DNA of 64,000 nt from Bacilli bacterium (lineage in GTDB: Bacteria > Bacillota_I > Bacilli_A > RF39 > UBA660): positions 1,734 through 65,733 of the forward strand of contig JAEDKN010000002.1 of assembly GCA_016295795.1 (NCBI GenBank), given 5' to 3'. The stretch's first letter is position 1; each line of letters opens with the position of its first letter. The translations under genes were made by a program, and so were the position numbers. Positions 18,424 through 55,041 of the stretch are shown piece after piece. The notes below the pieces were generated by a model. It searched no databases and was not told the origin of the DNA. It saw only the letters and a program-made list of their open reading frames with translations.

Positions 18424-20004
18424 GTGATAAATGTGAAAGAAGAAAAGAAAAACCAAAAATGGGAAATAATAGCATTTGTAGTGGTATTGATAGTATTAAT
18501 AGTAGCAATAATATTTGTAATAATAAAAAATATTACAAAAGAAGTTGAAGGAAATAAAAATGAAGCTATAGTAGTACCAACTGTATTATACTTTGATAAT
18601 GTAATAGGTTCAGAGGTAGAAAAAGGAACAAGAATAGAAGCAAAAGGTTTTTTTACGTATGTAGGAGTTAAGGATTACTATTTTAAAGCTGGTGCATATG
18701 ATGAAAATACAAAGATAGTAGAAACCAATTGTACCAAGGTGGATGTAAGTAAATATTCTACTGTTAAATTTAACGTAAATAAGAGTGGAATGTATGCGAA
18801 ATGGACGATATATAGTGATAGTGTATGTAAAAGGAAGGTAATAGATTATAAAACAAGGGAGTATGAAGTAAAAGGTAGTAGCACATCGACAAATAAGACA
18901 TTCAAAGCAACATTTGATAAAAATGGAGCAACAAGTATAGGAAGTAGTAGTTTGAGTTGTAACACAACAGGTAGCTCATGCACAGTAAAAGCACCAAGTA
19001 TAAAAAGAGATGGATATACAATAGTAGGATGGAATACATCAAAGAATGCAACAACAGCACAATATAAAGTAGGAAGTACAATAACATTAACGAAAAATAC
19101 AACATTTTATGCTATTACAAAGAAAAACACAACTGGCAGTAGTTCTTCAGGAACTACAACAACAAAGACATTCAAAGCAACATTTGATAAAAATGGAGCA
19201 ACTAGTATAGGAAGTAGTAGTTTGAGTTGTAACACAACAGGTAGCTCATGCACAGTAAAAGCACCAAGTATAAAAAGAGATGGATATACAATAGTAGGAT
19301 GGAATACATCAAAGAATGCAACAACAGCACAATATAAAGTAGGAAGTACAATAACATTAACGAAAAATACAACATTTTATGCTATTACAAAGAAGAATAC
19401 AACTAGTGGTAGTTCTTCTAGTAGTTCTAGCAGTAGTAAGGCTAAAAACGGAATAGCTTATTCAAAAAAAGTAAATGGAACTACTGTGTATGTTGAGAAT
19501 GGTTGCTCATCTTCTATAGTAAATAAATACATAGCTGATATACAAGCCAATCCAAGTTATTTAGTTCAAGCAGGGAATATATATATATTAACAAAAAATT
19601 CATTTAATAGTTATTATGGGACACAAAATGCTATAGGAATGACTAGTGGATTTGCTATGCTTTGGGCTTCTGATATTAGATGTGATTCTTACTATGATGG
19701 GGTTGTTGCTCATGAACTTGCACATGGAATGGATGGCTATTATGCATTTTTAAAGGGAAAGGGTCGAATTTCTGCAAGAAGGGAATTTACGCAATTATAT
19801 AATAAATATTATAAAAAAATATTAACTGATTACGCATTTGATGAAGGTACAGACGAGTTCTTTGCAGAAGCATATGCATTTTACTTTGGTAAATACATAT
19901 CAAAGCCTTCAAAAGAATTGTCTGGATATAGACAAAATTACCCAGGAGAATTAAAAACGTTGATGGAACAAACTCTTAAAGAAATGTCTCAAGTTAATTG
20001 GTAA
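18424..20004 (+). CDS. membrane-anchored protein with two Listeria-Bacteroides (Flg_new-type) repeats and a C-terminal ATLF/M34-like zinc metalloprotease domain
   Basis: N-terminal TM helix; 2 x FDKNGAT...RDGYTIVGWNTS...TFYA repeat; VVAHELAHGMD (HExxH) and downstream DEFFAEAYAFYF, resembling lethal-factor EFFAEAF with the third zinc ligand Glu. Confidence 0.7.
   Translation: MINVKEEKKNQKWEIIAFVVVLIVLIVAIIFVIIKNITKEVEGNKNEAIVVPTVLYFDNVIGSEVEKGTRIEAKGFFTYVGVKDYYFKAGAYDENTKIVETNCTKVDVSKYSTVKFNVNKSGMYAKWTIYSDSVCKRKVIDYKTREYEVKGSSTSTNKTFKATFDKNGATSIGSSSLSCNTTGSSCTVKAPSIKRDGYTIVGWNTSKNATTAQYKVGSTITLTKNTTFYAITKKNTTGSSSSGTTTTKTFKATFDKNGATSIGSSSLSCNTTGSSCTVKAPSIKRDGYTIVGWNTSKNATTAQYKVGSTITLTKNTTFYAITKKNTTSGSSSSSSSSSKAKNGIAYSKKVNGTTVYVENGCSSSIVNKYIADIQANPSYLVQAGNIYILTKNSFNSYYGTQNAIGMTSGFAMLWASDIRCDSYYDGVVAHELAHGMDGYYAFLKGKGRISARREFTQLYNKYYKKILTDYAFDEGTDEFFAEAYAFYFGKYISKPSKELSGYRQNYPGELKTLMEQTLKEMSQVNW
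18896..19419 (+). repeat. two tandem copies of a 270-bp unit, nearly identical at the DNA level, inside the metalloprotease gene
   Basis: 18901 ttcaaagcaacatttgat... recurs at 19171; only a handful of mismatches, near the unit ends. Confidence 0.95.
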
Positions 20005-24319: not shown

Positions 24320-24700
24320 GGGGCCGACTAGGTTTCGACAGGAAGGATTGAATTTAGATAGCAAGTAGGAAGCAAACCTTAAATTGCATCAGTTAAATAT
24401 AACTGGAAACAAAATTAAAGATGCATTCGCTTCAATGTTTAATAAAAACGCTGTAGCTTTTGCCTAATTTATTAGGGAATGCGCTCTTATAAATTCTTTT
24501 CCTACGGGAATTTATTAAGGGCTGATTTTAGTAGGATATATTTCCGTTATGTCTATGAATGGAAATGAATTTTTATAGACTAGTTATATAATTGGTTGTT
24601 AATTACTTGTTATATAATGAATTTTATTAATTAACTAAACTTGTAGAAGTCTATCTGTCACCCTTTTTGGACGGGAGTTCGATTCTCCCCGGCTCCACCA
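24320..24700 (+). ncRNA. ssrA: tmRNA (SsrA)
   Basis: 5' GGGGCCGACUAGGUUUCGACAGG..., 3' GGACGGGAGUUCGAUUCUCCCCGGCUCCACCA (T-arm, acceptor, CCA); internal tag frame 24405-24467 reading GNKIKDAFASMFNKNAVAFA-stop. Confidence 0.93.
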
Positions 24701-24740
24701 GTTTGATAGGAAACTCGAATTTTTCGAGATTAAAATATAA

Positions 24741-24772
24741 AATATCGGAGTAGTTTACTCCGATATTTTTTC
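24741..24772 (+). terminator. terminator after ssrA
   Basis: Perfect 12-bp stem AATATCGGAGTA/TACTCCGATATT, 3-nt loop, T-run. Confidence 0.8.
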
Positions 24773-25039: not shown

Positions 25040-25191
25040 AAAATCATTCTCCTTTCAATATATTATATTTTTATATTTTAAAAGTGCAACGTTATAAACC
25101 TAGTGAAATAGGGCTTTTATCACAATGCTATCTTTATTATTTATCGAATATAAAAAATATAAACAAATATAATTAATTGGAGGATTATATA

Positions 25192-25968
25192 ATGATTTAT
25201 AATGGTATAGAGAACTTTAAAATATATTTTCCTGTTTCAACACAGAGTATAGAAGAAATAAAACTTATAATGGATTCTAATAAATTCGATGGTCTTTGTT
25301 TGTCAGTAAATGCTTTAAATAATCAATTATTTATTCAAAAGCCAAATTGGTATAGATGGAATGAAGTTGCTGATTTAACATATAGTGTTGACAAAAGCAA
25401 TCTGAATGATTTTTTAAAAAAGGTTAATAGTCTAAAGAAAAGATTTACAATAATACTTGCGATAGAAAATGTTTTTGACAAAGTAGATGATGATCTGTTG
25501 TTGCTATTTGATTTTTTAAATGATTCAGGAATCTTTAACTTTGATTATATTATAAATAACTGTTTTTATAAAAGGGAAAATACTAATTCAAAAAAACTGC
25601 TTTATATTTTAAAAAGTTTTAGTCAAGTTGATATAGCTTATACAGAAAGTTGCAATTATGAGTTTAGAAGTATGAGAGAGTTTAAATATTCAATATTTAA
25701 TTCTAATACTTATCTTTCGAATATGATATATGAGATAAATAATGATAAAAAGATAATTTTCCCTTGTATAAATAGGCTGGATAGTATAAAGCTTAATAAT
25801 TTGATTAATTCTGATTTTGAAAGCCAATTTGCTCTTTTAAAAAGGGTAACAAATTGGAGTGATCAAAGTATAGAAAATTATTTGAATTATCCATACAAAT
25901 CTTATAAAAAAGCAGACATTTCGCTGATAAGCGAAAATCCGGAAAGTATCGTTTTGAAGAAAAGATAG
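25192..25968 (+). CDS. hypothetical protein (258 aa from ATG 25192), no recognisable family, contains no histidine
   Basis: Long ORF with GGAGG RBS; first gene of the post-ssrA block. Confidence 0.55.
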   Translation: MIYNGIENFKIYFPVSTQSIEEIKLIMDSNKFDGLCLSVNALNNQLFIQKPNWYRWNEVADLTYSVDKSNLNDFLKKVNSLKKRFTIILAIENVFDKVDDDLLLLFDFLNDSGIFNFDYIINNCFYKRENTNSKKLLYILKSFSQVDIAYTESCNYEFRSMREFKYSIFNSNTYLSNMIYEINNDKKIIFPCINRLDSIKLNNLINSDFESQFALLKRVTNWSDQSIENYLNYPYKSYKKADISLISENPESIVLKKR

Positions 25969-26077: not shown

Positions 26078-26647
26078 GTGATTTTTATAAAACCGCTTGA
26101 AATATTGGATAGGGCTTGTTTTTTAACCATGAAGAAATCTTATGACGATTGTTTTAAAACTAATAATACTGTTTCAAATGATGAGAGTATGGAGTACGCA
26201 ATAGATAATACTGCAAAGGCATTAGAAGAAGTTGTTTTACATAAAAACTATAATTATTTTTCAAGAACTGAAAATGTAAGAGAAGATTTGATAAATTGTG
26301 GAACGAATAAAATAAAAGCAGAATTATTAAAAAATGTGGTTAAAACTTATTCATATTATAGAAAGAATAAAATGCTTAACGAAGATTATTTAAATTATGA
26401 TTTTAGCAAGGCACTATCATATGAAGAAACGATTTCGGTTGTCTACTTAAATATGGTAAAGTATGGAATAGGCAAGATTCAATCTGTGTTAAATGATGAG
26501 ACTGTTGTAAAAAATTTAGCGAAGTCATTTGTGATAGAGAGAATAAAATATGATAGGAAGTTAGAATTGGAAGACTCTTTAGATGATGCTGGAAAGTTTT
26601 TAATTAATGCTATAGAAAGTTATTATTTGAAGACGAGGGAGGTTTAA
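26078..26647 (+). CDS. hypothetical protein (189 aa), no recognisable family
   Basis: ORF with GAGG RBS; stop lies 1 nt before the next start. Confidence 0.5.
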   Translation: MIFIKPLEILDRACFLTMKKSYDDCFKTNNTVSNDESMEYAIDNTAKALEEVVLHKNYNYFSRTENVREDLINCGTNKIKAELLKNVVKTYSYYRKNKMLNEDYLNYDFSKALSYEETISVVYLNMVKYGIGKIQSVLNDETVVKNLAKSFVIERIKYDRKLELEDSLDDAGKFLINAIESYYLKTREV

Positions 26648-26648
26648 T

Positions 26649-27995
26649 ATGATAAGTTTAAGAGAAAAATATTCAACGTTTGTATTTAAAAAATTTACTG
26701 TTATAGAGGATGAAAAAAGAATAAATATTAAATATGAATATGCAATTTCTGAGTATGTTTTTACACCTATGGTTTCAATTGAAAAAAGCAATATAACAAA
26801 CGAGCATATTAATAAAGATTTTTTAAATTACTTGTTCTTTAATTTTGGAATTATTAATGCTATAAATTATTATAAATTAACATGTGCAAAGAAATTTGTT
26901 ATAGAATGTGGATATCTTAATGATGATCAAAAATCTTTTTTTAAGAAATTATTTTATAATGGATTGGGTGAATTATTATATAAAAATAATCTGAATATTC
27001 CGTATGAAGAATTTGTTGAAATAATAACAACTAATAAAATGTATAACTTTGATATTAAGGACGAATTTAGTGGGAATTTAATTCCTGTTGGTGGAGGAAA
27101 AGATTCTATTGTTACACTCGAGTTATTAAAGTCTGAAAAACAGAAAAACAAGTGTTTTTTATATAAAAGAAATATTTATCCTGACGACTTAGCAAGTTTA
27201 AATACAATTTATACTGCTGGCTATACTAAAGATGATATTTTGTCTTTTAATGTAACTTTGGATCCACTTATGTTAGATTTAAATAAAGAAGGCTTTTATA
27301 ATGGACATGTTCCCTTTTCTTCTTGTTTAGCATTTGCTGCATATATAATGGCATATCTAAACAATAAAAAATATATTGTTTTATCAAATGAGGCTAGTGC
27401 AAATGAAGGAAATGTTAAAGATACCAATATAAATCATCAATATTCAAAAAGTTTTGAGTTTGAAAAAGATTTTAGAAATTATACTTTTAAGTATTTTACT
27501 CCATATATAGAGTACTTTAGTTTACTTAGATGCTGGAACGAATTTCAAATTATAAAAAGATTTTTGAAAGAACCAAAATATTTAGATGTGTTTAGGAGCT
27601 GTAATCTTGGAAGTAAAACAAATACTTGGTGCGGAGATTGTTCAAAATGTTTGTATGTTTTTATAATGTTATATCCGTTTGTAGATAGAGAAAAATTGAT
27701 TCAAATATTTCATCATGATATGCTAGATGATGAAAAATATAAAGACACATTATTAGCTCTTATAAGTCAAGATTTTGATAAACCATTTGAATGCGTAGGA
27801 ACAAAAGAAGAAATAGATTATGCTTTAAAATTATCTATAGAGAAATATTCTGAGTTGCCCTTGTTACTAAAATATTATAAAGAAAATTTCTATGATTCAA
27901 GCAAGCAATATGATGTTGATAATTACTTTAACAACAACAACTTTATAAATGATAAATTTCTAAAAATGATGGGATATGATAAAGATGAAAGATAA
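26649..27995 (+). CDS. PP-loop (adenine nucleotide alpha-hydrolase) superfamily protein with a QueC-like Cys cluster; candidate MurL-type UDP-MurNAc-L-Ala-L-Glu epimerase
   Basis: GGGKDS at 27090-27107 (SGGxDS-type PP-loop); SC-x9-CGDCSKC at about 27600-27650; 20-nt overlap with the downstream MurD-like gene. Confidence 0.6.
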   Translation: MISLREKYSTFVFKKFTVIEDEKRINIKYEYAISEYVFTPMVSIEKSNITNEHINKDFLNYLFFNFGIINAINYYKLTCAKKFVIECGYLNDDQKSFFKKLFYNGLGELLYKNNLNIPYEEFVEIITTNKMYNFDIKDEFSGNLIPVGGGKDSIVTLELLKSEKQKNKCFLYKRNIYPDDLASLNTIYTAGYTKDDILSFNVTLDPLMLDLNKEGFYNGHVPFSSCLAFAAYIMAYLNNKKYIVLSNEASANEGNVKDTNINHQYSKSFEFEKDFRNYTFKYFTPYIEYFSLLRCWNEFQIIKRFLKEPKYLDVFRSCNLGSKTNTWCGDCSKCLYVFIMLYPFVDREKLIQIFHHDMLDDEKYKDTLLALISQDFDKPFECVGTKEEIDYALKLSIEKYSELPLLLKYYKENFYDSSKQYDVDNYFNNNNFINDKFLKMMGYDKDER

Positions 27996-29295
27996 AATTA
28001 TTAAATTTTTGACTGGTAAAAAAATATTGATATTAGGATTTGGCCGAGAGGGGAAATCTGCATATAAATTTATAAAAGAAAACAATATAAAATATTCTTC
28101 ACTTGGAATAGCTGATAAAAACGAAATAACTATAGACGAAAATATAAAATTGCATATAGGAGAGGATTATTTAAATTCGACAAAAGAATATGATTTGGTA
28201 ATAAAATCGCCAGGAATAATAATAAAAGATTATATAGATGACATAGAAAAAGAAAAAATAACTTCGTTGACTGACATATTCTTAATGTTTTGTGAAAATA
28301 AGATAGTTGGAATAACGGGAACTAAAGGTAAAAGCACTACTTCTTCGCTTATATATCATATTTTGAAGGATAATAATTATGATGCTCTTTTAATTGGAAA
28401 TATTGGGGTTCCTTGTTTTGATGTTATAGATAAAATTAACAAGGATACTATATTAGTTTATGAGCTTTCGTGTCATCAATTGGAATATGTTAAGGCAAGT
28501 CCTAGTATTTCTGTATTATTAAATATATATGAAGAACATTTAGACCATTATAATGGTATTGAATCTTATGTACAGTGTAAGAAAAACATATATAAATATC
28601 AAAATAATGATGATTATCTTATATATGGAGATATTTGGAAATATATAACAAAAGAAGAAATAGAATCTGTGAAATCTAATAAAATATGTATAGATGATAA
28701 TCCATTAAATATCGACTATTCTAAAATTGAGACTTCCCTTATAGGGGATCATAATAAAAAAAATATAATTACGGCTATTATAGTTACAAATATTTTAGGA
28801 GTTAATGTAAATGAAGCGTTAAGATCTGTCAAAAGTTTTAAAGGGTTGGAGCATCGATTAGAATATGTTGGGGAGTATAATAATATAAAATTTTATAACG
28901 ATTCTATCGCAACGGCTCAAGAGGCAGTGATAAATGCAGTAAAGAGTTTGAAAAATGTAGACACCATTATATTGGGTGGAATGGATAGAGGTATTGATTA
29001 TACTTTGCTGGTTAAATTTTTATCAACAAGTTCTGTTGAAAACATAATTTTGTTGCCAAATACGAATATAAGAATTCAAAATTTATTTAGAAACTATACA
29101 ACAAATAAACACATTTTGAGTGTAAATAATATGGAAGAGGCAGTAAAAATGTCGTATGAGGTCACAAAAGATAACAAAATATGTCTATTGTCACCTGCTG
29201 CTGCTAGTTATGGATTTTATCTTAACTTTGAAAAAAGAGGAGAACATTTTAAACAATTAGTAAGAGATTATGGAAATAATAATGGAAAAAAATAA
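27976..29295 (+). CDS. MurD-family UDP-N-acetylmuramoyl-L-alanine:glutamate ligase paralogue (MurD2-like)
   Basis: ILILGFGREG Rossmann start, GITGTKGKSTT P-loop, GDHNKKN, GLEHRLE, SPAAASYGF...FEKRGEHF; NDSIATA replaces the canonical NDSKATN. Confidence 0.8.
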   Translation: MIKMKDKIIKFLTGKKILILGFGREGKSAYKFIKENNIKYSSLGIADKNEITIDENIKLHIGEDYLNSTKEYDLVIKSPGIIIKDYIDDIEKEKITSLTDIFLMFCENKIVGITGTKGKSTTSSLIYHILKDNNYDALLIGNIGVPCFDVIDKINKDTILVYELSCHQLEYVKASPSISVLLNIYEEHLDHYNGIESYVQCKKNIYKYQNNDDYLIYGDIWKYITKEEIESVKSNKICIDDNPLNIDYSKIETSLIGDHNKKNIITAIIVTNILGVNVNEALRSVKSFKGLEHRLEYVGEYNNIKFYNDSIATAQEAVINAVKSLKNVDTIILGGMDRGIDYTLLVKFLSTSSVENIILLPNTNIRIQNLFRNYTTNKHILSVNNMEEAVKMSYEVTKDNKICLLSPAAASYGFYLNFEKRGEHFKQLVRDYGNNNGKK

Positions 29296-29335: not shown

Positions 29336-29509
29336 ATGATAGAATTCTTTAGGGATACCTTGTCAGGGGTATATTACTATATATATGTTGTGATTAATTT
29401 AATATTTATTTTTGCTTTAATTGGATATATTGGCGAAAAAAAAGAAAAAGGGCTTTCTAAAACAGAAATAGATAAGGATGCACAACAGAATATTGTTAAC
29501 AATGAATAA
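29336..29509 (+). CDS. 57-aa small membrane protein (below the ORF-track cutoff)
   Basis: MIEFFRDTLSGVYYYIYVVINLIFIFALIGYIGEKKEK...; AGAGGGA RBS. Confidence 0.4.
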   Translation: MIEFFRDTLSGVYYYIYVVINLIFIFALIGYIGEKKEKGLSKTEIDKDAQQNIVNNE

Positions 29510-29548: not shown

Positions 29549-30367
29549 ATGAGCATAACTTTAGAAAGTGTAATCTCAATAATTAATAAAACAGTAGACA
29601 TTTTACTGGTATGGTTAGTTTTTTATTACATATTAAAAAGTATTAAAAACAGTGTAAAGTTGACATTGATTTTTAAAGGTGTAATTATAATAATAATATT
29701 AAAAATAGTAAGTGATGTTTTTAATTTTGTAACTATGGGTGTGCTGTTAGAATATATAATTATGTGGGGGCCATTGGCATTAATAATAGTATTTCAACCA
29801 GAAATTAGGACAGTATTAGAACAACTAGGAAGAAGCCAATTGTTAGGAAGGCATAAGGTTTTGACTGTAGATGAACGAGAGAGATTAGTATATGAGATAA
29901 TTCAATCTATGGAATATCTAAGGAAAATGAAGATTGGGGCTTTAATAGTTATAGAACGAGATGTTAGTCTACGGGATTATATTGAGAAGGCCAAGAAGAT
30001 TTATGGTGATATTTCAAGTGAGTTGTTAATATCGTTATTTTTCCCTAATAATCCATTGCATGATGGCGGGGTTATTATTCAAGGAGACAAGATAAGCTGT
30101 GCTGGCGCTGTTTTCCCTACAAGTAATAATCCTAAGACGAATAAACATTTAGGAACTAGGCATAGAGCTGCATTGGGTATTGCAGAGGAAACTGATTGTA
30201 TAGCATTAGTTGTATCGGAAGAAACAGGAAGATTATCAATAGCGGTAAAAGGAGAACTTTTCTATAATCTTACTATAGATGATATTAGGATGATGCTTAT
30301 AGACGAACTTAGACCAAAACAAGATATTGATGAAGAAGAGGAAGAAATATATGAAGAAAACAAATAA
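29549..30367 (+). CDS. cdaA: diadenylate cyclase CdaA (c-di-AMP synthase)
   Basis: Three N-terminal TM helices and DAC domain: HDGGVII, GTRHRAALGIAEETDCIALVVSEETG. Confidence 0.93.
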   Translation: MSITLESVISIINKTVDILLVWLVFYYILKSIKNSVKLTLIFKGVIIIIILKIVSDVFNFVTMGVLLEYIIMWGPLALIIVFQPEIRTVLEQLGRSQLLGRHKVLTVDERERLVYEIIQSMEYLRKMKIGALIVIERDVSLRDYIEKAKKIYGDISSELLISLFFPNNPLHDGGVIIQGDKISCAGAVFPTSNNPKTNKHLGTRHRAALGIAEETDCIALVVSEETGRLSIAVKGELFYNLTIDDIRMMLIDELRPKQDIDEEEEEIYEENK

Positions 30368-31703
30368 GAATAAAAAAAATATATTTAAAACTTTAATAGA
30401 TTTGTTTGATCGTTATATAATAACTCCTATAACCAAATTCATAATGAGTTTTGGTGATATGTTAAAAAACAACAAAAAAGGATTAGAAAAAGTTTTAATG
30501 AATAAACAAGCTTTATTAATTATATCCTTGGTTGCAGCTTTTGCGGTATTTTATACTGTAGATCAAAAAACTACAACTTTAGTAGATAATTCCGCTGAGG
30601 TACTATATGGGCAACCAGTAAAAGCTATTTATAACGAAGAATTATATGTGGTAGAAGGTGTTCCAAAAACTGCTGATGTGACATTGATAGGTAGAAGATG
30701 GGATGTTTATCTAGCTAAACAATATCCTGCAGATGAAATAATTCTTGACTTGCAGGACTTGAAACCAGGAACACATCGAGTAACAACAAAATACAAACAA
30801 CTTGTATCATCGGTAGAGTATAAACTTGATCCTTCTGTAGTTACCGTTGTTGTTTATGAAAAAATGTCTGCAAATAGGGAATTAACATATGATATTATCC
30901 ATAAAGATAATTTAGATACAAAATTAAATATAGAATCAGTGACTTTAAGCAGGGATACGGTAATAATAAAGGGTGCTGAATATAAACTTGAAAAGGTTGC
31001 GTCTGTTAAAGCTTTAATAGACGTTGATAATTTAAATAATCCAAAAGTAGGGAGTATAACGTTAAAAGATGTTCCTTTAGTTGCCTATGACCAACAAGGA
31101 AATGTATTGGATGTTGAAATTGTTCCTGAAAAGGTAGAAGCAACTATAAAAATTAGTTCTCCTAGTAAAACAGTACCGATAAAAATCGAAACTAAGGGAG
31201 AATTAGATAATAAGGCAATTAAATCTTTAACTTCTAATGTTTCTAGTGTAACTGTTTATGGTGCTGATCAAGCGCTAGAAGATGTTGAATATGTAACTGC
31301 AGAAATAGATATTGAAGGAATTAAAGCAAATAAAAAATATAATGTTAACTTAAAGAAACCTGCTGGGGTTAGAGAAATGAGCGTCAATAAAGTGACTATA
31401 AATATGGTTGTAGACGATATTGCAACTAAGGAAATAACCGGAGTTCGAATTAATTCATTAAATTTAGCTTCCGGATTAAAAGTTCAAGCTCTGAGCAAAG
31501 AAGATAGTAGTATAAGTGTGGTACTAAGTGGTAGTGAATCGGTAATAAAAAATATAGATGTATCTAAGATAAATGCATATATTGACTTATCTGATTTGTC
31601 GGTGGGAGAACACGAGGTTGAAATAAAGGTATCTGGTAGTGACGATAGAGTTTCTTATACTTCAAAAATTAAAAAGGTAAAGATTAGAATAAGTGCAGAA
31701 TAA
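30351..31703 (+). CDS. cdaR: CdaA regulatory protein CdaR (YbbR-domain protein)
   Basis: TM anchor and repeated YbbR-like beta domains; overlaps the cdaA stop. Confidence 0.85.
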   Translation: MKKTNKNKKNIFKTLIDLFDRYIITPITKFIMSFGDMLKNNKKGLEKVLMNKQALLIISLVAAFAVFYTVDQKTTTLVDNSAEVLYGQPVKAIYNEELYVVEGVPKTADVTLIGRRWDVYLAKQYPADEIILDLQDLKPGTHRVTTKYKQLVSSVEYKLDPSVVTVVVYEKMSANRELTYDIIHKDNLDTKLNIESVTLSRDTVIIKGAEYKLEKVASVKALIDVDNLNNPKVGSITLKDVPLVAYDQQGNVLDVEIVPEKVEATIKISSPSKTVPIKIETKGELDNKAIKSLTSNVSSVTVYGADQALEDVEYVTAEIDIEGIKANKKYNVNLKKPAGVREMSVNKVTINMVVDDIATKEITGVRINSLNLASGLKVQALSKEDSSISVVLSGSESVIKNIDVSKINAYIDLSDLSVGEHEVEIKVSGSDDRVSYTSKIKKVKIRISAE

Positions 31704-53922: not shown

Positions 53923-55041
53923 ATGAGTGTGTCAACGGCAATTTATGTTAGAGTTTCAACGGAAGAGCAAGCTTTACATGGATTTTCTATTAGAGCACAG
54001 AAAGAGAAACTTATTTATTATGCAAAAAACATAAAAAATTGGGATGTATATGATACATATATAGATGATGGAATAAGTGGGAAAAACATTAAAGAAAGGC
54101 CGGAAATAAAAAGAATGTTGGAGGATATAGCAAACAAAAAAGTTAATAATGTACTGGTTTTTAAAATAGATAGATTAACTAGATCGACAAAAGATCTTAT
54201 AGATTTAATTGAATTTTTCAATAGAAATAATTGTGATTTTAATTCTCTTAATGAATCTATTGATACATCGAGCGCAACTGGCAGAATGTTTATTAAGATA
54301 ATAGGAATATTTGCAGAATTTGAAAGAGAGAATATTGTTGAAAGAGTTAAACTAGGTTTTGAAAGAAAGGTTAAAGAGGGAAATAGTATTTGTAGTTCAA
54401 CTCCACCGTTTGGATATAATAGACCAAAGGGAAGTAATATATTAGTTATAAATAAAAGTGAAAGTGTAATTGTAAAAAGAATATATGCATTTTTTTTGAA
54501 TGGATTTTCAATTAGTAAAATTTGTAATATTTTGAATATGCAAAATATAAAAACTAAAAAAGATAGAATGTGGAGTAACAAAACGATTAAATTGATATTA
54601 ACTAATACTACTTATATAGGTAAAGTTAGATATGGTGTCAATAAAAAAAATTATTTTGATACCTTTGGACATCATATTCCTATAATTTCCGAAAGTGAGT
54701 TTAATCTGGTACAGCAAAAGCTTCTTAAACAGGGTAGTAATCGAACTAAAACAGATGCATATTATTCACATATTTTAAAATGTAAGTGTGGATCTGATAT
54801 GATCTCAAAACGAATATATAAAATTAATAAAAGTGGGGTAAAAAAAGTTTATATAAATTACAGATGTAAAAATAAAAAAGATGGTTGTAGTAAAGATATA
54901 AGCCACAAAAAAATAGATAAAATGATGTCTTTAGTAAATGATGATTGGATAGTATTTTCTAATGAAGAAAAGTATGATTTCCTTATAAGAAAAAATATTC
55001 ATTTATTAGTAGAGAAAGGAAAGTTAAAAATAATAATGTGA
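53923..55041 (+). CDS. large serine recombinase (short form, 372 aa)
   Basis: AIYVRVSTEEQ catalytic Ser motif, FKIDRLTRS, FAEFERENIVERVK, recombinase domain, Cys motif CKCG...YRCKNKKDGC. Confidence 0.9.
   Translation: MSVSTAIYVRVSTEEQALHGFSIRAQKEKLIYYAKNIKNWDVYDTYIDDGISGKNIKERPEIKRMLEDIANKKVNNVLVFKIDRLTRSTKDLIDLIEFFNRNNCDFNSLNESIDTSSATGRMFIKIIGIFAEFERENIVERVKLGFERKVKEGNSICSSTPPFGYNRPKGSNILVINKSESVIVKRIYAFFLNGFSISKICNILNMQNIKTKKDRMWSNKTIKLILTNTTYIGKVRYGVNKKNYFDTFGHHIPIISESEFNLVQQKLLKQGSNRTKTDAYYSHILKCKCGSDMISKRIYKINKSGVKKVYINYRCKNKKDGCSKDISHKKIDKMMSLVNDDWIVFSNEEKYDFLIRKNIHLLVEKGKLKIIM

Follow-up and report, generated by a model that had tools for sequence, protein, structure and literature searches.

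The closest described counterpart of the locus reported here is the MurL/MurD2 pair of Xanthomonas oryzae (XOO_1319 and XOO_1320, respectively), whose orthologues in Micromonospora and Salinispora are also confirmed (Feng et al., 2017, as cited in PMC8788868 and PMC5808125). The MurL reaction converts one ATP to AMP, and an alpha-carboxyl adenylate has been proposed for it (PMC8788868). In reviews the protein is described as lacking known conserved domains, and the published distribution of MurD2/MurL comprises the Xanthomonadales, a few Alphaproteobacteria, rare actinomycetes and some low-similarity outliers (PMC8788868, PMC5808125). The subject of the present analysis is a stretch of 64,000 nucleotides (64 kb; hereafter the window) from the metagenome-assembled genome (MAG) of a gut Bacilli bacterium (contig JAEDKN010000002.1), in which two overlapping genes of the forward strand, named here murL and murD2, appear to encode a MurD2/MurL two-step route to the D-glutamate (D-Glu) residue of the peptidoglycan stem peptide. 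From the sequence evidence set out below, a probability of roughly 0.8 is given to this reading. Motif positions in amino acids (aa) are those of the window proteins.

Homology of the upstream gene product to MurL

A scan against NCBIfam gave a single match for the 448-aa product of murL, namely NF041275 ("MurL_Xanthmoales"; E-value 5.5e-65, 219.6 bits), with residues 10-394 aligned to positions 9-391 of the 447 in the profile and therefore nearly full length. Precomputed Pfam assignments for the identical protein, which is found on five contigs, show the domains MurL_N (PF26299) and MurL_epimerase_C (PF26298), both of which are also present in all 120 listed homologues. An older Pfam release gave no match to the protein; that release predates the MurL models, so this is no sign of novelty.

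For direct comparison, a pair annotated as murL and murD by PGAP was taken from a 508-kb Xanthomonas sacchari record that had been mis-filed in a plasmid collection. BLASTP aligned the window MurL with the annotated X. sacchari MurL over 331 aa at 30% identity (E-value 4e-52), and the window protein has every core motif of the latter. An alignment of 13 deep-branching MurLs (those of the window, X. sacchari and Pseudonocardia together with 10 distant homologues) contains 37 invariant columns. These include most of GGGKDS (148-153), G219-H220-x-P222, N247-E248-x-S250 and N262-H263-Q264-x2-K267, as well as S317-C318-N319, W327-C328-x2-C331-x-K333-C334 and P379-F380-E381-C382-x-G384. The first-pass annotation, made from the letters of the sequence, had put forward a MurL/MurD2 pair and named a lack of MurL similarity as part of what would count against it; the similarity is present, in the profile match and both Pfam domains as well as in the alignment with X. 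sacchari. On these comparisons the homology of the 448-aa protein to MurL is secure; its orthology to the Xanthomonadales equivalog is not.

Residues of the ligase linked to L-glutamate specificity

The downstream gene codes for a MurD-type ligase, as first proposed. Its product passes TIGR01087 (murD) with 321.5 bits (cutoff 212), possesses the Pfam domains Mur_ligase_M, Mur_ligase_C and MurD-like_N, and carries the motifs GTKGKSTT (115-122), GLEHRLE (290-296), SPAAASY (406-412) and FEKRG (418-422). TIGR01087 was dropped as a means of telling MurD from MurD2, since X. sacchari MurD2 passes it too (298 bits).

Residues associated with the choice of substrate are known from the literature. Relative to Escherichia coli MurD, X. 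oryzae MurD2 shows the exchanges D182E, K348R, A414P and L416F; its E197D/R358K double mutant is switched to D-Glu, and E. coli MurD with K319T accepts L-glutamate (L-Glu) (PMC8788868). The corresponding positions were read from an alignment of the window ligase, X. sacchari MurD2, 74 ligases linked to a murL and 13 unlinked MurDs, five of which have a verified mraY/ftsW/murG context, with E. coli MurD numbered from its record sequence (L096). Position 182 is occupied by E in the window ligase, in X. sacchari MurD2 and in 65 of the 74 linked ligases, and by D, T, A or N in the unlinked MurDs. At position 319, where K is found in 11 of the 13 unlinked proteins and in all the dcw-cluster MurDs of Listeria, Staphylococcus, Bacillus, Parabacteroides and E. 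coli, both the window ligase and X. sacchari MurD2 have I, as do the linked ligases (72/74; L in two). The loss of K319 as a criterion for MurD2 was derived in this analysis and is not a published family definition. Position 348 is R in the window, in X. sacchari MurD2 and in every linked ligase; the unlinked MurDs have K, or R in Bacilli, and R at this position is not diagnostic alone, since dcw MurDs of Bacilli carry it too. The combination E/I/R supports the view that the window ligase has the residues linked to L-Glu specificity and is of the MurD2 type.

The two unlinked MurDs without K319 are those of the Oscillospiraceae Pusillibacter faecalis (L089:3974-5350) and Subdoligranulum variabile (L088:3806-5206), which lie beside neither murL nor dcw genes. 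Both show N/I/K at positions 182/319/348 and so keep K348.

A neighbour-joining tree was made of 75 MurL-linked ligases including that of the window, one proteobacterial MurD2 (X. sacchari) and 12 canonical or unlinked MurDs. The linked ligases, 75 in all, form a single clade with a bootstrap of 98, and the dcw MurDs from these phyla lie outside it.

Gene pairing, fusions and distribution

A scan of species-representative genomes found a MurL relative in at least 591 of them. Adjacency was counted in the best 80 of these loci (of at least 591), and in 78 of them murL is followed immediately by a MurD-type gene in the same orientation. By a rough assignment of start codons, about 49 of 77 such pairs overlap by 4-20 nucleotides (nt), and in one locus (L025:5842-8529) the two are joined in a single open reading frame (ORF) coding for an 895-aa MurL-MurD protein. 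When 1.84 billion representatives were searched exhaustively with HMMER, 2,366 MurL-family clusters at 50% identity were obtained (1,010 with an E-value of 1e-30 or lower), many of them 800-1,250 aa long. Fusions in both orders, MurL-MurD and MurD-MurL, were confirmed with Pfam (among P0184, P0192, P0215, P0217, P0230 and P0281); P0230 is a MurL-MurD fusion with an added M20 peptidase domain, and P0281 is a fusion with a MurC/E/F-type N-terminal catalytic domain. The arrangement foreseen in the first-pass annotation, a MurL coupled upstream of an L-Glu-adding MurD2, is borne out at the level of sequence by the MurL homology, the E/I/R residues, the adjacency and the fusions.

Carriers of MurL are mostly Clostridia, Bacilli, Bacteroidales and Saccharibacteria of the gut and rumen. 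Among the matches listed, the best one to the window MurL from a species-representative genome is 60% identical, and the nearest named relatives of both proteins belong to a Mycoplasmatota MAG (60%) and to Saccharibacteria (52-58%), followed by Clostridia, Bacilli and Bacteroidales. As these nearest relatives belong to other phyla, the pattern suggests that murL and murD2 have been passed on together across phyla by organisms of the gut and rumen. No paper describing this gut clade was found within the searchable literature.

The relatives from the Mycoplasmatota MAG and about ten Saccharibacteria genomes (L006-L016) include one on a 734-kb Nanosyncoccaceae contig. Stand-alone MurL homologues, annotated as hypothetical, were also seen on the Pseudonocardia alni plasmid pPaSha1 (L087:4797-6197) and on two other Pseudonocardia plasmids, with 323 bits on NF041275. 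No Mur ligase is encoded within 5 kb of them, and they may represent a paralogue with another substrate.

Predicted fold of MurL and the proposed route

An AlphaFold2 model of MurL, built from a 55-sequence alignment, has a predicted local distance difference test score (pLDDT) of 94 and a predicted template-modelling score (pTM) of 0.93. In this model GGGKDS sits between a strand (143-146) and a helix (151-159). When the model was compared with the PDB by Foldseek, the best-ranked matches were nearly all PP-loop ATP pyrophosphatases, including Cap9 (template-modelling score 0.73 on the target), TtuA, NAD synthetase, QatC, argininosuccinate synthetase (ArgG), QueC (3bl5), ThiI and LarE. Pfam showed no sequence similarity of MurL to the PP-loop families; a sequence search of the PDB returned only spurious Cas2 matches (E-value approximately 0.04) and no solved MurL structure. 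Assignment of MurL to the QueC-type PP-loop ATP pyrophosphatases is consistent across the fold matches but only moderately supported; such a fold would fit the published stoichiometry of one ATP to AMP. The four invariant cysteines, with their QueC-like spacing, may form a zinc site, and H220 and C382 are put forward as candidate acid/base residues.

In the route envisaged, MurD2 would use ATP (to ADP and phosphate, via an acyl-phosphate) to add L-Glu, not D-Glu, to UDP-N-acetylmuramyl-L-alanine (UDP-MurNAc-L-Ala). MurL would then convert L-Glu to D-Glu at the nucleotide-peptide, giving the normal substrate of MurE. The epimerisation typical of MurL depends on ATP and Mg2+, forms AMP, runs only from L to D and acts on the terminal Glu, and the Xanthomonas pair complements the D-Glu auxotroph E. 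coli WM335. To judge from the predicted fold, MurL as a PP-loop enzyme would adenylate the alpha-carboxylate of Glu; the activated residue would lose its alpha-proton, directly or via an oxazolone, be reprotonated from the other face and be released by hydrolysis. With an overlap of 11 or 20 nt between their genes, MurL and MurD2 would be translated in a coupled manner. A predicted QueC-like fold with a Cys4 site offers a concrete, testable basis for the otherwise unexplained one-way epimerisation by MurL at the cost of ATP to AMP.

Start sites and genomic neighbourhood

Both ORFs are real, and every motif quoted in the first-pass annotation was located in the sequence (Table 1). The overlap of 20 nt given there is obtained with the ATG at 27976; from the second in-frame ATG, at 27985, it is 11 nt. 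This second ATG was the start chosen by gene callers on five independent contigs with the identical protein and has GGGA 10 nt to its 5′ side, and the ATG at 27976 lacks a usable Shine-Dalgarno sequence. The overlap itself holds whichever start is used, with the callers in favour of the shorter one.

Table 1. Positions in the window of the murL-murD2 pair, its motifs and residues, and neighbouring features
Feature	Position	Strand	Remarks
murL	26649..27995	+	448 aa; ORF listing, family matches, AlphaFold2 model (pLDDT 94)
GGGKDS (aa 148-153)	27090..27107	+	PP-loop-like; G148, G149, G150, D152 and S153 invariant in 13 MurLs, K151 in at least 90%
Four-Cys cluster S-C318-N...W-C328-x2-C331-x-K-C334 (aa 317-334)	27597..27650	+	SCN...WCGDCSKC; all four Cys invariant
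KPFECVG (aa 378-384)	27780..27800	+	P379, F380, E381, C382 and G384 invariant, K378 in at least 90%; V383 varies
murD2	27985..29295	+	436 aa from ATG 27985, or 439 aa from ATG 27976
Glu187 (in YEEH)	28534..28536	+	Aligns with E. coli D182 and X. oryzae MurD2 E197
Ile311 (in NDSIAT)	28906..28908	+	Aligns with E. coli K319
Arg338 (in GGMDRG)	28987..28989	+	Aligns with E. coli K348 and X. oryzae MurD2 R358
tmRNA gene	24320-24700		Directly after smpB; tag GNKIKDAFASMFNKNAVAFA
Hairpin terminator	24739-24769		Strong, 14-bp stem; after tmRNA gene
ORF263	25177-25968		263 aa; between tmRNA gene and murL; no family match
ORF189	26078..26647	+	189 aa; stops 1 nt before murL ATG; no family match
Shine-Dalgarno sequence of murL	26636..26643	+	GAGGGAGG; strong; inside 3′ end of ORF189; read from sequence
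Small ORF	29336..29509	+	57 aa; between murD2 and cdaA; hydrophobic-looking; called on identical contigs
cdaA (diadenylate cyclase) and cdaR (YbbR)	29549..31703	+	Pfam DAC, CdaA_N and YbbR

The order of genes around the pair is nusG/rpoBC/EF-G/EF-Tu, femAB, RNase R, smpB, murL-murD2, cdaA-cdaR and the S10 ribosomal operon, of which the rpoBC, EF-G/EF-Tu and S10-operon blocks were assigned by position and gene calls. Among the window ORFs covered by the Pfam scans there is no dcw gene, no murI, no D-amino-acid transaminase and no second canonical murD, in agreement with the earlier remark that the ligase lies away from a dcw context. Likewise, no terminator-like hairpin is present between murD2 and cdaA, and the pair is therefore probably co-transcribed with the 57-aa ORF, cdaA and cdaR. 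A relative of 66% identity (L099) keeps the order femAB-secG-rnr-smpB ... murL-murD2-small ORF-cdaA-cdaR, with a 58-aa gene (L099:12694-12870) in the position matching the 57-aa ORF. In a relative of 72% identity the pair stands in another context, beside sporulation genes. The window CdaA falls in one cluster with the CdaA of Clostridium sp. CAG:710.

With its 1-nt spacer, ORF189 would be translationally coupled to murL. Neither Pfam nor NCBIfam gave a match for it, and among the loci compared ORF189 and ORF263 occur only in contigs of the same species (L001-L003). In L099 their place is taken by uvrA-like, holin and lgt genes; they are therefore regarded as species-specific insertions, and their candidacy as conserved partners of the module was rejected. 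It is worth mentioning that in X. sacchari a 150-aa hypothetical ORF (L086:4351-4803) overlaps the start of murL by 4 nt, mirroring the coupled ORF189. The two proteins show no detectable similarity.

Elsewhere in the window, a 526-aa surface-type protein (18424-20004) has two nearly identical Listeria-Bacteroides repeats of approximately 80 aa and a C-terminal ATLF-like HExxH metalloprotease region. The segment 50426-57287 encodes an adhesin with a thioester domain (TED) and SpaA fold and a serine recombinase (53923-55041), together with ABC transporter genes on the minus strand and a local reversal of GC skew, and may be a mobile or variable region.

Points against the assignment and alternative explanations

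Several observations weigh against reading the pair as MurL and MurD2, and most concern the distance from the characterised proteins. The window MurL is only about 30% identical to that of Xanthomonas, and its 219.6 bits are far under the curated equivalog cutoff of 700 bits for NF041275, which X. sacchari MurL exceeds with 836.5. Going by its name, NF041275 appears to have been built for the Xanthomonadales, so that the missed cutoff would mean that the protein is not a close orthologue of those of that order, and not that it is non-homologous. Identity of the ligase to X. sacchari MurD2 amounts to only 23%, and its score against that protein is 119 bits, compared with 175 bits against the canonical MurD of Streptococcus agalactiae. 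Where X. oryzae MurD2 has P433 and F435, the window ligase has A and Y, and nine of the 74 linked ligases have D, not E, at position 182. X. sacchari MurD2, on a long branch of the neighbour-joining tree, joins the clade of linked ligases in only 36% of bootstraps, and the joining of the Xanthomonas protein to the gut clade by this tree was therefore not supported. In the comparison with MurD and MurD2 clades that the first-pass annotation had suggested, separation from the canonical dcw MurDs is well supported (bootstrap 98), and a grouping with Xanthomonas MurD2 is not robustly supported. For the fold, the Foldseek E-values are weak (best 2.6e-3, none at or below 1e-3), and comparison by hhalign of the 55-sequence MurL profile with Bacillus subtilis QueC aligned the PP-loops without significance (E-value 0.035, probability 1.4%). 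The PP-loop and QueC-like character ascribed to the protein at first is supported by the predicted structure and the fold matches, though with these weak E-values.

It is conceivable, if rather unlikely, that the pair is functional and at the same time redundant, or a conditional bypass, in a genome that also has a canonical dcw murD together with murI or else a D-amino-acid transaminase. Nothing in the data points to this directly. The pair seems to move between phyla, given that its nearest named relatives are in Mycoplasmatota and Saccharibacteria, its genomic context differs between the relatives of 72% and 66% identity, and a genome may keep its own pathway alongside a copy that it has acquired. 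Against this, organisms listed as carriers of MurD2/MurL are reported to be without genes for D-Glu formation (PMC8788868, PMC5808125), and the synteny femAB ... smpB ... murL-murD2-cdaA-cdaR kept in the 66% relative speaks for stable residence. The lack of murI and dcw genes in the Pfam scan of the window points the same way as weak evidence.

Improbable is the reading of the ligase as an ordinary MurD that adds D-Glu and is accompanied by a MurL-like enzyme with another adenylation reaction, such as amidation of the alpha-carboxyl to iso-glutamine at the nucleotide stage, in analogy to QueC. A QueC-like fold does serve the conversion of carboxylate to amide or nitrile elsewhere, identity between the gut clade and characterised MurL is only about 30%, with a score under the equivalog cutoff, and the Pseudonocardia plasmid homologues without a Mur ligase indicate that the fold is not always tied to MurD2. 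However, all the invariant MurL motifs, including H220 and C382, are kept between the gut clade and Xanthomonas MurL, and a ligase with E/I/R and without the K319 common to all sampled dcw MurDs would be hard to explain if D-Glu were added. An equally slim chance is left to the wider proposal that the MurL-like enzyme of gut bacteria and candidate phyla is no epimerase of this Glu, either producing iso-glutamine by alpha-amidation or epimerising a residue other than Glu that is supplied by a re-specified ligase; if true, this would be a new tailoring step of peptidoglycan precursors. An undescribed modification module had been kept as a fallback in the first-pass annotation and is not needed, since MurL homology and MurD2-type residues were found. 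Finally, a coincidental adjacency and overlap of unrelated neighbours is refuted by the 78 of the best 80 loci, drawn from several phyla, in which the genes are adjacent, by the many fusions and by the 20-nt overlap that is also present in X. sacchari.

Implications for annotation and drug targeting

A MurL relative at least 90% identical to that of the window is deposited as "hypothetical protein [Bacilli bacterium]" because the score lies below the 700-bit cutoff, and under PGAP-style annotation such ligases are labelled as D-glutamate ligases, which is also the name given to X. sacchari MurD2. With these labels, reconstructions of reduced gut Bacilli would therefore show a gap at D-Glu or the wrong reaction. 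In reviews MurD2/MurL is considered to be limited to relatively few genera and is promoted as a narrow-spectrum target against Xanthomonas and Stenotrophomonas (PMC8788868). If the copies reported here are functional, inhibitors of MurD2/MurL would hit many commensals too, and the system would be a mainstream way to the D-Glu residue.

Comparison with known systems

With PP-loop enzymes such as QueC (3bl5), Cap9 (9nto), QatC (9y02), TtuA, NAD synthetase and argininosuccinate synthetase, which occupy most of the top 50 Foldseek matches, MurL shares in its predicted central domain the succession of strand, glycine-rich loop and helix (GGGKDS compared with SGGxDS). ATP-to-AMP chemistry on a carboxylate would be common to both, and the C-x9-C-x2-C-x2-C cluster of MurL resembles the zinc site of QueC. 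MurL differs in having G, not S, as the first residue of the loop, in the addition of a domain at the N-terminus (MurL_N) and of a helical region at the C-terminus, and in an outcome of epimerisation and hydrolysis instead of amidation or thiolation; by sequence it belongs to none of these families.

The canonical route through MurI and the dcw MurD has in common with the window a ligase of the three-domain Mur ligase fold that passes TIGR01087. The window ligase differs in that it is not beside mraY, ftsW or murG and that it has I for K319 and E for D/T/A at position 182. Unlike in the canonical route, the stereo-inversion would follow ligation, on the nucleotide-peptide, at the expense of one extra ATP.

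The resemblance to the Xanthomonas MurL/MurD2 system extends to gene order and size, as had been claimed from the start: murL precedes murD2 with overlapping stop and start (20 nt in X. sacchari also), and the proteins have 448 and 436 aa in the window compared with 451 and 478 aa. All the MurL core motifs, the residues E, I and R at E. coli positions 182, 319 and 348, and a location outside the dcw cluster are likewise shared. However, identity is only 30% for MurL and 23% for MurD2, the NCBIfam cutoff is missed, A and Y stand for P433 and F435, and the window ligase is placed in a separate, well-supported Firmicutes/Bacteroidales/Saccharibacteria clade that is not robustly joined to Xanthomonas MurD2. 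The host also differs, being a low-GC gut Bacilli MAG of a lineage outside the published distribution, where the system is known from sequence. The locus would accordingly be described as a gut-Bacilli member of a known system, unannotated in its lineage, in which the breadth of occurrence is modestly new, together with the PP-loop appearance of MurL.

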